From: a virus
Virus record (IMG/VR): IMGVR_UViG_3300020420_000008
Coordinates: 1-64,000 of that record
Length of the DNA: 64,000 bases
Strand: one strand, 5' to 3'
The stretch's first letter is position 1. The number at the start of each line of letters is the position of its first letter. The translations under genes were made by a program, and so were the position numbers. The notes beneath the pieces are model-generated. The model saw only the letters and a list, made by a program, of their open reading frames with translations, was not told the DNA's origin and searched no databases. This document shows, piece by piece, positions 6,310 through 48,464 of this stretch.

Positions 6310-6702
6310 ATGTTAGTTACTTATTTCAATTCAAATAAAGCAGAAAGAACCTTGATTGACAAGGCTCTTGTCTTTGCTAAAGAGCAACTTCTACCTAAAG
6401 TTAGAAAACTTGAGATAGATGTTATAATGAAAAACAACATGAAGTCAGATGGTTTCGTTGATGTTGATATAGATGACAATAGATATTTTACACTACGTAT
6501 CAAAAAGAGTCAAGACATAGATGATCTGATTACTACTATTTTTCATGAGTTCACACACATAATGCAATCAGTTAAAGGACAAGATATCTTTGCTCCTACT
6601 GATGTTGACTATCTTGAAAGAGATTATGAGATTGAAGCTTTTGAGATGCAAGAAAAATTACTGGTTGACTTTAAGGCTCAATCTGATATCCTAATAGTGT
6701 AA
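6310..6702 (+). CDS. Zincin-like metallopeptidase
   Basis: HEFTH (HExxH) plus downstream YEIEAF. Confidence 0.7.
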   Translation: MLVTYFNSNKAERTLIDKALVFAKEQLLPKVRKLEIDVIMKNNMKSDGFVDVDIDDNRYFTLRIKKSQDIDDLITTIFHEFTHIMQSVKGQDIFAPTDVDYLERDYEIEAFEMQEKLLVDFKAQSDILIV

Positions 6703-6725
6703 GTGATTCGAAAGAGAGAGAAAAT
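6665..6725 (+). promoter_or_regulatory. Early promoter/leader cassette A1
   Basis: TTGACT-N16-TATCCT, then TAGTGTAAGTGATTCGAAAGAGAGAGAAAAT-ATG. Confidence 0.8.
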
Positions 6726-7840: not shown

Positions 7841-7903
7841 CATTTCTGACGAGTATGCTAATATAATAGTGTAAGTGATTCGTTAATAATGAAAGAGAGA
7901 GAA
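7837..7903 (+). promoter_or_regulatory. Early promoter/leader cassette B1
   Basis: TTGACA-N16-TAATAT, then TAGTGTAAGTGATTCGTTAATAATGAAAGAGAGAGAA-ATG. Confidence 0.8.
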
Positions 7904-8461: not shown

Positions 8462-8689
8462 ATGTTTATAGCAAAACCATCTCTAAATAATAATATTGGT
8501 GTTAAAGAATTTGAAGACATTCACGATGCTATTAGCTATCTTGAACAAGCAACAGGTTATGAAATGTCTTTTGAATTAGATCGCAAAAAGAAAAAGAAAT
8601 TAATTAAAGAAGGTATGTCTTCTCTTGAGGCAAACGAACTTTCTAAAACCTACGATTGGGAACTAATTGGAAAGTTGATAAGAAAGTGA
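8462..8689 (+). CDS. Early hypothetical protein
   Basis: AAGGAG RBS before ATG 8462. Confidence 0.7.
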   Translation: MFIAKPSLNNNIGVKEFEDIHDAISYLEQATGYEMSFELDRKKKKKLIKEGMSSLEANELSKTYDWELIGKLIRK

Positions 8690-8732
8690 GATGAATATCT
8701 TGTAGTTTTATTAATTATTTTTATTTTAGGGG

Positions 8733-8793
8733 TTGACAAAAAGCGAATCATATGCTATATTAAAAGCATAGTTAATAAGAAAGTGAGAAATAA
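8733..8793 (+). promoter_or_regulatory. Early promoter with CGAATCA in the spacer and GAAAGTGAGA leader
   Basis: TTGACA-N17-TATATT with TG extension and AT-rich upstream tract. Confidence 0.8.
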
Positions 8794-9165
8794 ATGACAT
8801 TAACAGTAAATAACAAAACTCAATACCTTGAAGCAGGTATTGATACTATGTTGAATTTCGCTAGAGGCGATTATGCTAACTGGACTACTAGAGGTGGTAC
8901 AAAAGAGTTAACTGATATTAACGAGAAAATGATTAAAGAGTTCAATACTGGTTTCGTAGTTAAATACGGCTCTAAGTATGCTAAAATTTTAAATCGTAAC
9001 CAATGTTGGGGTTTTGTTGTCCTTACTGATACTGACAAGAAGTTCAAGAAAGGCGATATTCTGATGGCGGCAGGTTACAATGCACCTGCTAGAAACGCCG
9101 CCAGAGGCAACGTCTTAGATGGTGGTTATCAGATACGATGGACAGGTCCTCTTTATCTGAAATAA
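8794..9165 (+). CDS. Conserved early hypothetical protein
   Basis: KY.KI...WGFV...GDILMAAGYNAPARNAARGNV...WTGP.YL, a widespread phage early-protein type. Confidence 0.8.
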   Translation: MTLTVNNKTQYLEAGIDTMLNFARGDYANWTTRGGTKELTDINEKMIKEFNTGFVVKYGSKYAKILNRNQCWGFVVLTDTDKKFKKGDILMAAGYNAPARNAARGNVLDGGYQIRWTGPLYLK

Positions 9166-9170
9166 GAATT

Positions 9171-9317
9171 ATCTCAAGCTGATGAGCGTCCGCATAACAT
9201 GTAGGCTTGAGATTTCAAAACAAGAGTTAGGTAAACCCGTCACCTCTCTCTCACTTTCACACACTAGACGGGTTATGGGAGGGACTCTGACATTGATCAA
9301 AATCCCTCCCTTTTTTT
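9171..9317 (+). ncRNA. Candidate small RNA: three hairpins, with a pyrimidine-rich anti-leader loop
   Basis: Stems 9171-79/9205-13, 9234-41/9267-74 (25-nt loop), 9277-84/9303-10 plus T7; intergenic, GC-richer than flanks. Confidence 0.65.
9277..9317 (+). terminator. Rho-independent terminator
   Basis: GGGAGGGA...TCCCTCCC followed by TTTTTTT. Confidence 0.8.
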
Positions 9318-9326
9318 AGGTATGAT

Positions 9327-9617
9327 ATGATAGTAAGAAATAAAAAAGCAATTGAACGTGAAAAGAAATTATTAAATGACTTGTTGGTGAAAACAGGTTA
9401 TACAAAACCAAAAACAAAATTTAGATATGAGTTTCCAGATTTATCTGTAAGAAAAACTGCATCAACAACAGATAAAATAGGTAATGGTTTAGCTAAAAAG
9501 TATGGTACTTATACTGGTGATGAATTACTAGGTATAGGAACACTACATAAATCTAATGCAGTACCAATACGTAAAGATAGCAATGATGCAAAAGATCAAG
9601 CAAACATGAGGCGATAA
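9327..9617 (+). CDS. Conserved hypothetical protein
   Basis: YTG...GIGTLHKSNAVPI...A.MRR motif of T4-like phages. Confidence 0.75.
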   Translation: MIVRNKKAIEREKKLLNDLLVKTGYTKPKTKFRYEFPDLSVRKTASTTDKIGNGLAKKYGTYTGDELLGIGTLHKSNAVPIRKDSNDAKDQANMRR

Positions 9618-9826
9618 TGAGAAAACATAGAATATTTTCAGCAAAATATCAATTATCAAAACAACTTGGCGGTAGAGAAGTGCCAGCAATTCCAGGAATG
9701 TATCATGCAGAAATATTTGATGATAGATCAGGTATATGGGAAAGAACAGCTTTTCTAACTAGAAAAACTTATAATGATGCTTTACAAATAGCTGAAGAGT
9801 ATGTAAAAATTGGACAAGATAAATAA
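9617..9826 (+). CDS. Hypothetical protein
   Basis: TAATG coupling. Confidence 0.6.
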   Translation: MRKHRIFSAKYQLSKQLGGREVPAIPGMYHAEIFDDRSGIWERTAFLTRKTYNDALQIAEEYVKIGQDK

Positions 9827-16400: not shown

Positions 16401-17265
16401 AGGACAACAACTACAATCAGCTTATAATGTAGATGATGATTTTAGTGGTAAGATTAAAAAGAAATTCAAAGACATACGAAAAAAGGACGGATTTGATTCT
16501 GTCGAAGAAGAAAATATGCAAGAGAAATTAACAAGAGGACAGCAAAATAAGCTTGATGACTTGGAAGCGTATTTGGGACATCTACAAAGAGTATCGATGA
16601 CACCTTCACGTAGAGCGGAGATAGAAGCTACCAAGAAAAAAATCAAGAAGCTAAAGTCCGAACAAACAGGAGATATAGAAGAGATGACTGGAATTAATGT
16701 TCCAGAACTCATCAAAACAACAATACATAGGTTATCACACCCAAAAGGATATGCAGATTTAATAAAAGCGTATATCAAGAGAGCCAAAGAACCGCATAGC
16801 GGAACTAACGGCGCTGTGCTTTCTGATGTTGCGAGAGAGAGAGGTTTCGATAGAGTGAAACCAATTCAAGATTATATAAATAGACTCATAAGTAAAGGTA
16901 AATTACCTAAAGAGTTAATGGCATCTCATTGTAGAGAAGAAGTTGAGATAGATGAAGATGGGTGTCCTATAGATTTGTTTGATCATGTTCTGGAAGAAGC
17001 AGAGTATCAAGGTAAAAAAGTAACCTTGAATGATCCTGTTCGTTCTAGTGATGGTAATAAAAAGTTTCATGTCTATGTAAAGAACGAAAAGGGTAATGTA
17101 ATTAAACTAGGATTTGGCGATCCAAATATGGAAATAAAGCGAGATGATCCTGCAAGGAGAAAATCATTTCGTGCAAGACATAATTGCGATAATCCAGGTC
17201 CAAAATATAAAGCACGATACTGGAGTTGTTACCAGTGGAGAGGCGGAGCAAAAGTTGACAATTAG
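13441..17265 (+). CDS. Modular protein: N-terminal HIGH-type nucleotidyltransferase plus many basic modules (DUF5824-like, C-terminal DUF6321-like); probable head-cargo polyprotein
   Basis: FGRMNPPTIGHEKL, VVGSDR, GMSGSKLR; VYNRGMAAW..GHRPG; FGDPNM..RKSFRARHNC..ARYWSC; acidic linkers ending hydrophobic-x-E. Confidence 0.75.
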   Translation: MKKLVFTFGRMNPPTIGHEKLANKIKEVARKENANPRIYLSHTQNPKKDPLSYNDKYRFATKAFGIVKRSQSKQIFQILPEIEKEGFTDIIMVVGSDRIKEFDRVLQKYNGKDYNFNSIKTVSSGDRDPDAQGVEGMSGSKLRGVAMSGDEKTFKSGLASKLSDADKTKIYNIVRKNLKEAIMNDWTEDDDLILEEAMQEVDFTEEELDMLAELGEYYEMNEVLNFMQRIKKSRVMKRLGKKLARLRKIASKKMKGGKKLMQMARKAAIKVLRKKLVGKDKASKYSLLSMADKKQIDMKVKKNSARIAPLARKLLPQVRKDVMQRVKQARQTPQNNEYIPEGVGAGKYSAMNLKKARELMSPAKHRKDGIERIMKGMKVSYKQATKFHDDVMKSYGFKPESYELDEMIPKSTMYALVKDGKVIAKGSKRDMMSKKKKEGGTIYNAPSKKVGDAMKEAMIPVGKMTGKGFEPAKKDKDTKLPPHLKDLKTIRKAFAKSKKVKEDLDEAKSSTGYKLYHKSFSDAMQHAYAHAKSKFGITIKKDEIDNKVATGPRKPGTGKTNTYRLKGDKGNIQVQVANLDGKKYELNMYKEEFSYGAWLEAKNFAQQAAIAIAKKKSGKYNKDGERTAPYAKEEKEAPKKTPQDPDVKDVEGTQPKKYYKGLSKATKDARASHFKNRDTSKNDNRPAPGDADAKTKPSKHTLKFKRMYGEQKNCGCGQTPCKTYGVQKEDPCWDTHKQVGMKKKGDKMVPNCVPKNEDAEDRVKARIKARQTANDKRDRIALARARTRDTVRDIRGEDVSEISTQKINRYYDKAKQSHDRAGNSAFARHLRKEPGIEKDLDTMRKRKAGIATARSIAIKKLRGEKPGKLREENYDYSFDMTEDAKTGLKAKSEKSGIPLGILRQVYNRGMAAWRGGHRPGASQQQWAFARVNSFITKGSGTWGKADKDLAAKARASMKSKKESVNEAGGAGEFGTKALLARYQKDTPGQQLQSAYNVDDDFSGKIKKKFKDIRKKDGFDSVEEENMQEKLTRGQQNKLDDLEAYLGHLQRVSMTPSRRAEIEATKKKIKKLKSEQTGDIEEMTGINVPELIKTTIHRLSHPKGYADLIKAYIKRAKEPHSGTNGAVLSDVARERGFDRVKPIQDYINRLISKGKLPKELMASHCREEVEIDEDGCPIDLFDHVLEEAEYQGKKVTLNDPVRSSDGNKKFHVYVKNEKGNVIKLGFGDPNMEIKRDDPARRKSFRARHNCDNPGPKYKARYWSCYQWRGGAKVDN

Positions 17266-37761: not shown

Positions 37762-37822
37762 TTGACATATCCTCTCCTTTTGCTATCCTATTATTGTAAG
37801 TGATTCGAAAGAGAGAGAAAAT
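37762..37822 (+). promoter_or_regulatory. Early promoter/leader cassette A2
   Basis: TTGACA-N16-TATCCT; 37795-37826 identical to 6698-6729. Confidence 0.85.
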
Positions 37823-38140: not shown

Positions 38141-38210
38141 TTGACTTTATTTGTCAGTGTGCTATTATAATAGTGTAAGTGATTCGTTAATAACAAAGAG
38201 AGAAAAAAAT
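38141..38210 (+). promoter_or_regulatory. Early promoter/leader cassette B2
   Basis: TTGACT-N16-TATTAT; 38166-38193 identical to 7862-7889. Confidence 0.85.
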
Positions 38211-38411
38211 ATGACAACATTCTTCGCAACTTCAATCGAACATATCACCACCACCAAAGACGGTGACAAGTTCATAGTTAGTTCTTCTTTTGCCGGTGCT
38301 GACGGCGACACTGCAAAAGAGTCAGAAGCAAATGCGATTGCTAGTTATGAGAAAGCAGGACACACTGCTGATGAATTGATTTCGATTACGACAGTTGAAT
38401 TAGATTATTAA
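38211..38411 (+). CDS. Early hypothetical protein
   Basis: ATG 38211 after cassette B2. Confidence 0.7.
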   Translation: MTTFFATSIEHITTTKDGDKFIVSSSFAGADGDTAKESEANAIASYEKAGHTADELISITTVELDY

Positions 38412-38424
38412 GAGAGAGGTTAAT

Positions 38425-38616
38425 ATGAACGATATAGATATTTTTGATTATTCGAATGCAATAGACATACTCATTGGTATGTCAGACAATCAACTACAAA
38501 CTCTAGCTACAAAGCTAGTTGATAGGTTTCCAAAAACCGCCGATTGTTTTGAAACTTATTTGTGCGCCGCCAGTGCGGATAAGATTGCTAATGAGAATTT
38601 TCTTTCAAAATTATGA
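38425..38616 (+). CDS. Early hypothetical protein
   Basis: AGAGAGAGGT RBS. Confidence 0.7.
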   Translation: MNDIDIFDYSNAIDILIGMSDNQLQTLATKLVDRFPKTADCFETYLCAASADKIANENFLSKL

Positions 38617-48229: not shown

Positions 48230-48458
48230 TTTTACTCCGACGGGAGTAAAAGTGGTGCAAGGAAGAGTCCTGATGACAAGAGGGACAAACTTGACTACTT
48301 AGGGGTGGTACCCAGGATTTGAAAAACGAATACTTAGAAATAAGGGCTAGTTTAACAAGTTCACATCATCATACCAGATGAAAGTAGGTTCTGGCATAAA
48401 TGGAAGATATGCTATCTTGTGATGTCAGTTGAGGGTAAAAGCGAGTCCCTCCCACACT
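48230..48458 (+). ncRNA. Unidentified structured RNA
   Basis: No ORF in track, multiple stems, lies between the tRNA and a terminator. Confidence 0.6.
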
Positions 48459-48464
48459 AAATTT

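Follow-up and report, generated by a model that had tools for sequence, protein, structure and literature searches.

Small RNAs (sRNAs) that act through loop-exposed, pyrimidine-rich anti-Shine-Dalgarno motifs and pair with many ribosome-binding regions are well established in bacteria, and include the cuckoo/alpha-r14 sRNAs (CcsR1–4 of Rhodobacter and NfeR1 of Sinorhizobium) as well as AbcR1/2. In phage T4, early translation is shut by two proteins that act via ribosome-binding regions, the RegB endoribonuclease and the RegA repressor. Little is understood of how marine T4-like phages time their gene expression, and we know of hardly any regulatory RNAs of lytic phages. Recognizable middle promoters are lacking in marine T4-like phages (PMC9004378). 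In Firmicutes, hairpins of LhrC1–5 (Listeria), RsaE, and RNAIII have loop-exposed C/U-rich seeds that block Shine-Dalgarno sequences (PMC4132741; PMC5880928). The known phage RNAs include OOP, sar, c4, IsrK, DicF, and CfrI (cyanophage S-PM2), together with the manA, glnA, and wcaG motifs of marine phages (PMC12197685). The same review describes no loop-seed sRNA of a T4-like lytic phage that is aimed at its own early leaders (PMC12197685).

The window analyzed here (64,000 nucleotides) is the first 64 kb of the 146.6-kb genome of an uncultured virus, a T4-like marine myophage akin to the Pelagibacter phages HTVC008M and Mosig and the Methylophilales phage Melnitz. It also encodes a permuted alpha-type tmRNA, a tRNA-Gly, and a manA RNA, the last at 48233–48460 (Rfam RF01745; 68 bits compared with a gathering score of 55.2). 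The element discussed below is located within a non-coding gap of about 161 nt (9166–9326) between the gene for a 123-aa protein (8794–9165) and the gene at 9327–9617, both on the + strand. An initial annotation, made from the sequence alone, had proposed that this gap carries three hairpins ending in a terminator and that the loop of the middle hairpin is antisense to the leaders of early genes. The sequence and the coordinates were confirmed, and refolding of the gap reproduced all three hairpins, with a minimum free energy of −43.1 kcal/mol and a z-score of −2.25 for the whole gap. Judged by the comparative evidence, the flagged stretch is a real small structured RNA, conserved among T4-like marine phages and hitherto undescribed.

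Among the sigma-70-type promoters of the region, the best is an early one at 8733–8761 (+ strand), upstream of the 123-aa gene, with 11 of 12 consensus matches and a TG extension. Its layout is kept in the close relatives L003–L007, and it is predicted to drive the 123-aa gene and, via read-through to 9317, the RNA element. The 123-aa early gene itself (8794–9165, + strand) has 264 relatives in viral contigs and only weak hits to DUF7717 and phrog_5014. In its leader and ribosome-binding region (8774–8793, + strand), positions 8779–8788 complement 9249–9258 of the loop at 10 of 10 positions, and the duplex between the loop and this leader has a predicted energy of −15.4 kcal/mol. A 14-nt word that includes the loop-complementary 10-mer is present twice, 97 nt apart (8677–8691 and 8774–8788); the first extends over the stop codon of a gene that ends at 8689, and the 123-aa gene has the second as its ribosome-binding region.

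The first hairpin (9171–9216, + strand), which has a single copy in the genome, is a lineage-specific insertion found only in the window and in L004; it is absent from L003, L005–L007, and L231. A hammerhead ribozyme was considered for this hairpin and rejected, as it has the CUGAUGAG word only, with neither stem II nor GAAA, and no Rfam hit. Downstream, a single-stranded lead-in (9224–9233, + strand; GAGUU...) has columns conserved with the more distant relatives described below, and this AGUU-type sequence may be an RNase E-type processing site. The core hairpin (9234–9274, + strand), identified by fold and covariation, consists of an 8-bp stem (9234–9241/9267–9274) and a loop of 25 nt (9242–9266) predicted to be unpaired, as originally annotated, with the conserved CU-repeat core at 9243–9252. 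The fold also places an intrinsic terminator at 9277–9317 (+ strand), with an 8-bp GC-rich stem (9277–9284/9303–9310), an 18-nt loop, and seven T (9311–9317). In the window, no promoter-like site was found between 9166 and 9233. The element is thus situated in the 3′ UTR of the 123-aa early gene, between the stop codon (9163–9165) and the terminator and with no promoter between, which fits the position of a 3′-UTR-derived sRNA.

Relatives of the element were located via loci encoding homologs of the 123-aa protein; anchoring on loop words gave mostly chance hits and two true relatives, and anchoring on a G-run terminator-promoter word gave mainly unrelated phages. The conserved parts are the middle hairpin and a terminator only. 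Both are retained in the close relatives L003–L007 and L231, with a terminator stem in L231 that is unrelated in sequence and located at the same place. The L003/L006 type differs from the window/L005 type by compensatory exchanges at three consecutive stem pairs and has an identical loop core. Loop lengths among these close relatives are 25, 24, and 22 nt, and this variation by 1–3 nt indicates that no reading frame is conserved. The compensatory stem changes and the terminators in relatives bear out the claim of a conserved, structured + strand RNA that ends in a terminator.

A second group of relatives (group 2; 52–64% protein identity) has the element at an equivalent position and on the same strand, with a 13-bp stem that differs in sequence and a loop that starts identically. 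Five of the 13 pairs (the upper five) change on both sides in this group and 98.8% of the cells are paired, a level reached by none of 500 shuffles and compared with 17–43% in slid controls. A covariance model built solely from 14 distant group-2 sequences has 9223–9274 as its sole match in the window and in the 146.6-kb genome (22.7 bits; E-values of 0.004 and 0.0015). The model also revealed two more stem classes, namely L076 and Melnitz-1 (MZ577095, 37290–37347), and a metagenomic copy of the Melnitz kind, L300, has a stem change that is compensated. Members of the middle-hairpin family were found in Melnitz, a cultured Methylophilales phage, and in some 30 contigs of uncultured marine myophages, and the loop core CCUCUCUCUC is common to five unrelated stem sequences. 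When 20 distinct sequences with these five unrelated stems were aligned and trimmed to the inner eight pairs, seven of the eight pairs were found to change on both sides, and eight loop-core columns were at least 90% identical. The high pairing in this alignment is partly by construction because each sequence was cut from its own hairpin fold; its informative point is the freedom of the stems around a fixed loop. Moreover, the orientation of the element is always that of the flanking genes. The proposed CU-loop family may be described as hairpins of 8–15 bp in contigs of T4-like marine phages, encoded on the same strand as the genes and with a loop of 20–25 nt whose first 8 or more nucleotides are a CU repeat, and the copies found have all of these features.

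For the gap at 9166–9326, Rfam 15 had no hit at the gathering threshold, and the best permissive hits (E-values of 0.13–7.6) were far below that threshold. Six relatives, including the fuller group-2 versions, also matched no Rfam family at gathering and permissive thresholds. A BLAST search of 50,697 phage records gave no match to the element in either its window or its group-2 form, probably because low-complexity filtering masks it; the Melnitz copy was recovered only with the covariance model. In a covariance-model search, the element was absent from the SAR11 phages HTVC008M and Mosig and from phage C48C1.

The conservation pattern bears on the possibility that the locus is a non-functional relic, either an inverted copy of an early promoter-leader cassette or a DNA-level site. 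An inverted cassette copy would account for the leader-like reverse complement of the loop. The minus-strand loop complement is preceded by a degenerate −35/−10-like arrangement at cassette spacing, and the base of the group-2 stem is an inverted pair of the word TGATTCG, which also marks early promoters and leaders. However, deep conservation with compensatory stem changes, the constant orientation, and the promoter and terminator that the Melnitz copy has of its own all make a relic highly improbable. A minus-strand gene or promoter was likewise rejected, given that the −10 element is defective (without the essential last T) and that no ORF follows on the minus strand.

The hairpin is found in four genomic contexts. 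In the window type, it belongs to the 3′ UTR of the 123-aa early gene, with its own terminator and without its own promoter. In group 2, the position is the same, and the hairpin is followed by a second covarying hairpin and then by a G-run terminator and the next early promoter, which overlap each other. In L076, it is intercistronic (6 nt from the stop codon upstream and 33 nt from the start codon downstream) and has no terminator, and the loop is complementary at 12 of 12 positions to a ribosome-binding region 12 nt downstream. In Melnitz (MZ577095, 37290–37347), a sigma-70 promoter with a 10/12 match ends 6 nt before the hairpin, and the unit consists of promoter, hairpin (15 bp with a 25-nt loop), and terminator, with a z-score of −7.1 for the 110-nt fold; L300 has the same layout. 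A homolog of the 123-aa gene is absent from Melnitz, so the RNA is independent of that neighbor, and the 123-aa protein was rejected as a dedicated partner on this ground. The free-standing promoter-to-terminator unit argues for a trans-acting RNA and is the best reason to regard the family as RNAs that act on their own.

The Melnitz genome paper makes no mention of an RNA at the hairpin locus (PMC9004378). A CDS annotated in that genome (Melnitz1EXVC043M_65, a 59-aa “hypothetical protein”; MZ577095 37295–37474, equivalent to L215 2796–2975) spans the hairpin, the terminator, and the next early promoter, and is probably spurious as a gene call. Melnitz, the sole cultured carrier, infects OM43, a betaproteobacterial member of the Methylophilales and not an alphaproteobacterium; the OM43 clade is placed in Gammaproteobacteria by the Melnitz paper (PMC9004378).

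These contexts also bear on whether the hairpin is only a structural 3′-end element, which would protect early mRNA from 3′ exonucleases or aid termination and in which the loop would be incidental. Its location at an operon 3′ end, directly before the terminator, in the window type and group 2 is as such an element would have it. A stabilizer, however, would need neither a 10-nt loop core that stays invariant on five unrelated stems nor the promoter of its own that is present in Melnitz, and the intercistronic, terminator-less position in L076 is at odds with it as well. We regard this explanation as very unlikely. An antiterminator role, in which the loop would pair with the G-rich terminator arm, was rejected because the pairing depends on G-U pairs and is weaker than the terminator.

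Several further features were observed in group 2. The outer stem of the second domain (L011 3229–3330 and L047 3072–3161) covaries and the domain contains an invariant AUGAUGA, which usually complements the CAUCAU part of the group-2 loop, such that a loop-loop contact is possible. In L166, AUGAUGA is kept and the loop complement is lost, and L196 has a minimal one-hairpin version. Interpretation of the second domain as a box C/D k-turn was rejected on the grounds that the spacing and the D-box-like word are not conserved, and AUGAUGA is not preceded by a ribosome-binding region that would support a mini-ORF start. The loop of the G-run terminator stem carries the −35 box of the next early promoter (L011 3305–3345), so that terminator and promoter overlap; the G-run terminator word is widespread in unrelated phage contigs.

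A cis-acting translational control would have the loop pair with a ribosome-binding region on the same transcript, through long-range or pseudoknot pairing, and tune a neighbor gene rather than a regulon. The partner would be the upstream gene (8779–8788) in the window, the next gene in L076, and, in place of a ribosome-binding region, the internal second domain with AUGAUGA in group 2. The perfect 10-nt complement upstream in the window, the intercistronic hairpin of L076 with its 12/12 complement 12 nt downstream and no terminator, and the location of the best loop complement 18–31 nt downstream, in the covarying second hairpin, in most group-2 variants are all consistent with such control. 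However, in Melnitz and L300 the hairpin forms a separate promoter-to-terminator unit without an adjacent partner, and the window partner is 455 nt upstream. Moreover, the leader of the upstream gene has changed in L006 and L007 while the loop was kept, and in L166 the AUGAUGA persists without its loop complement. Cis control is considered unlikely, and a trans-acting RNA that pairs with early leaders is the reading pursued below.

Five early promoters in the genome share a cassette, the leader of which ends in a GA repeat before the start codon. With gene starts and transcription starts that are crude calls, GA-repeat upstream motifs were found to be enriched in promoter-proximal genes (6 of 13 compared with 13 of 155 other genes; p = 0.001). 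Most other genes have GGAG/AGGA-type sites. Because GA repeats are concentrated behind early promoters and GGAG/AGGA-type sites elsewhere, the canonical anti-Shine-Dalgarno sequence alone is an insufficient explanation for the GA repeats. The heptamer TGATTCG, which includes a GANTC site, is present at a fixed place in five early cassette leaders (6704, 7876, 37801, 38180, and genome position 131215), and its complement is found in the spacer of many group-2 early promoters (e.g., L047 at about 2455–2461, L085, and L196). Two inverted copies of the heptamer are also found where the group-2 hairpin stem has its invariant base. Such a distribution suggests that early promoters are linked to a signal at the DNA level (methylation or a regulator).

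The best predicted duplex of the loop, bipartite and with an energy of −22.1 kcal/mol, is formed with the GA-repeat ribosome-binding region of the first early-promoter cassette leader (6693–6725, + strand). Other candidate targets among the cassette leaders, all on the + strand, are 7865–7903 (−19.8 kcal/mol), 37790–37822 (−17.4 kcal/mol), and 38169–38210 (−16.7 kcal/mol). In addition, the ribosome-binding region of the gene at 38425 (38405–38424, + strand) matches the 5′ part of the loop at 10 of 10 positions (−16.8 kcal/mol). When start regions are ordered by duplex energy, the three best and five of the six best are behind or inside early-promoter units (6726, 37823, 38425, 12361, and 8794, the last being the upstream gene of the element), and the exception among these six is 128927. 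The expectation that early genes would rank top holds to this extent. When early leaders were not selected beforehand and the ten best of all start regions were averaged, however, the loop did not differ significantly from its shuffles, either in this genome (z = −1.8 and −0.8) or in Melnitz (z = −0.5 and +0.5). A genome-wide duplex scan showed that many Gly-rich coding stretches outscore the leaders, which makes the raw energy ranking uninformative.

All k-mer matches listed in the initial annotation exist; single k-mer matches are only modestly above chance. The 10-mer of 8682/8779 has three occurrences compared with 0.42 expected (1 of 100 shuffles reaches three), and the GA 8-mer has eight compared with 3.7 expected (5 of 100 shuffles reach eight). 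Further matches are inside coding sequence (16833–16845, 25550, 16179, 40557, and 53300). The TAGTGT part of the match to the leader 5′ end is at or before the likely transcription start and may thus be outside the mRNA.

For the five cassette leaders, the mean loop duplex is −18.2 kcal/mol. Mononucleotide shuffles of the loop gave a mean of −7.8 kcal/mol (z = −5.2; 0 of 300 as good) and dinucleotide-preserving shuffles a mean of −12.2 kcal/mol (z = −2.6; 6 of 300 as good), whereas the start regions of other genes paired no better with the loop than with its shuffles (z = +0.35). The claim that pairing exceeds that of shuffled sequences is thus upheld for the five cassette leaders and fails for the ten best start regions. 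When the CU core was fixed and only the loop tail was shuffled, the mean was −15.0 kcal/mol (z = −1.95; 15 of 300 as good, p about 0.05). The low-complexity CU core alone supplies −12.4 of the −18.2 kcal/mol. Accordingly, of the proposal that the loop is a composite of early leaders, the complementarity of the CU core to GA-repeat leaders stands, and the contribution of the tail is marginal. The predicted duplex is bipartite, with the ribosome-binding region bound by the CU core and the 5′ end of the leader by the loop tail.

Among the lineages compared, the loop beats shuffles on the early leaders of its own genome in 10 of 11 (z = −2.75 to −5.45), the exception being Melnitz (z = −0.9). Window-type loops are best on window-type leaders (−18 compared with about −13), and CAUCAUC-type loops are best on L017-type leaders. 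The preference for own over foreign loops was seen in these two lineages only, both with the same bipartite geometry. The longest exact loop complements are no longer in the own genome than in foreign phages, a comparison that does not discriminate because low-complexity GA runs are everywhere. By these computed measures, a loop with no predicted internal pairing complements GA-rich leaders, with weak specificity beyond composition. The conserved signal is a CU repeat facing GA-repeat leaders, and anything finer is no more than suggestive.

Such a signal may also be read as a decoy for a protein or the ribosome, in which a pyrimidine tract resembling the 16S 3′ end, instead of pairing with mRNAs, binds a protein with affinity for unpaired pyrimidine-rich RNA (such as ribosomal protein S1 or a phage factor) or titrates another RNA. 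What is strictly conserved is composition and repeat and not a specific target complement. Moreover, the loop starts with a CACCUC-type word in several lineages, which we take to match the anti-Shine-Dalgarno region of a canonical bacterial 16S end. Most lineages have one copy per genome, and the RNA is predicted to be made early. However, no candidate binding protein travels with the element (the 123-aa neighbor being absent from Melnitz), and a decoy would leave the presence of an unusual CU repeat opposite unusual GA-repeat leaders in the same genomes unexplained. A decoy is therefore rated as distinctly unlikely, somewhat more so than cis control.

With regard to RNA data, 15 RNA runs from 11 studies contain about one-tenth of the words of 8600–9700. 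Contigs from four marine RNA-library runs, with 90–98% identity, cover 8776–9224 only, and none falls on 9229–9320; small or low-complexity RNA is easily lost from such data. The 123-aa early gene or its close relatives are present in seawater RNA libraries of several studies, and DNA carry-over is possible.

Based on these lines of evidence, 9224–9317 may encode a small regulatory RNA that represents a new family of T4-like marine myophages. Its functional part would be the hairpin, in which the stem sequence is free and the large loop presents CCUCUCUCUC and a lineage-specific tail. In the phage of the window, transcription from the early promoter at 8733 would yield the RNA as the 3′-terminal part of the mRNA of the 123-aa gene, with a stop at 9277–9317, and cleavage upstream of the hairpin might free it. 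In Melnitz-type phages, it would be a separate promoter-to-terminator gene of about 100 nt. We infer that the element is expressed as a stable RNA and that its exposed loop pairs in vivo with the GA-repeat ribosome-binding leaders of the first early genes, including that of the upstream gene. Pairing would block ribosome access and result in negative feedback on, or shut-off of, early translation, and on the sign of this regulation the CU-loop RNA probably damps early-gene translation. Since an early promoter would produce the RNA at the same time as its proposed targets, a feedback loop is indicated rather than the delayed timer of the initial annotation.

Our leading, although tentative, reading is that the element is an anti-Shine-Dalgarno-type phage sRNA, produced from early promoters, that acts on GA-repeat leaders of mainly early genes in feedback or shut-off. 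A broader version of this reading, which we consider rather doubtful, is that T4-like marine phages, which have no RegB, accumulate one early-promoter RNA whose CU-repeat loop pairs with the GA-repeat leaders of the early operons and thereby serves as a global switch closing early translation, with a loop tail that co-evolves with the leader 5′ ends in each lineage. The element is an RNA gene, conserved and so far without annotation, of a phage group that is abundant worldwide, and the covariance model may be used as a seed for virome annotation. Because one carrier belongs to a cultured phage-host pair (Melnitz on OM43), RNA control of early translation is directly testable.

Compared with the described systems, the window RNA resembles the cuckoo/alpha-r14 and AbcR sRNAs in having a terminator and a pyrimidine-rich hairpin loop, with the pairing being a prediction here. 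It differs from them in that the phage element has no sequence or structure match in Rfam and carries a CU repeat in a single large loop of 21–25 nt, whereas the cuckoo and AbcR sRNAs have CCUCCUCCC or CUCCCA in at least two hairpins. Furthermore, it comes from lytic T4-like phages, and its best predicted targets are the early leaders of the same genome. The CU/UCCC sRNAs of Firmicutes belong to another phylum, have another motif and several redundant seeds, and are chromosomal and stress-induced, with no homology to the phage element. With the 3′-UTR sRNAs of the CpxQ/SroC/DapZ type, the window element shares the use of the promoter and terminator of the upstream mRNA and a conserved, A/U-containing candidate cleavage strand. 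Unlike these enterobacterial sRNAs, the Melnitz copy has its own promoter, and processing in the window is putative. The known phage RNAs differ in that they are mostly from temperate phages, or are cis-antisense RNAs or cis-regulatory motifs. RegB and RegA are proteins that cleave or bind their site, whereas the phage RNA would base-pair with it, such that any likeness would be functional only. Taken together, these comparisons point to a new RNA family with a mechanism of known type.
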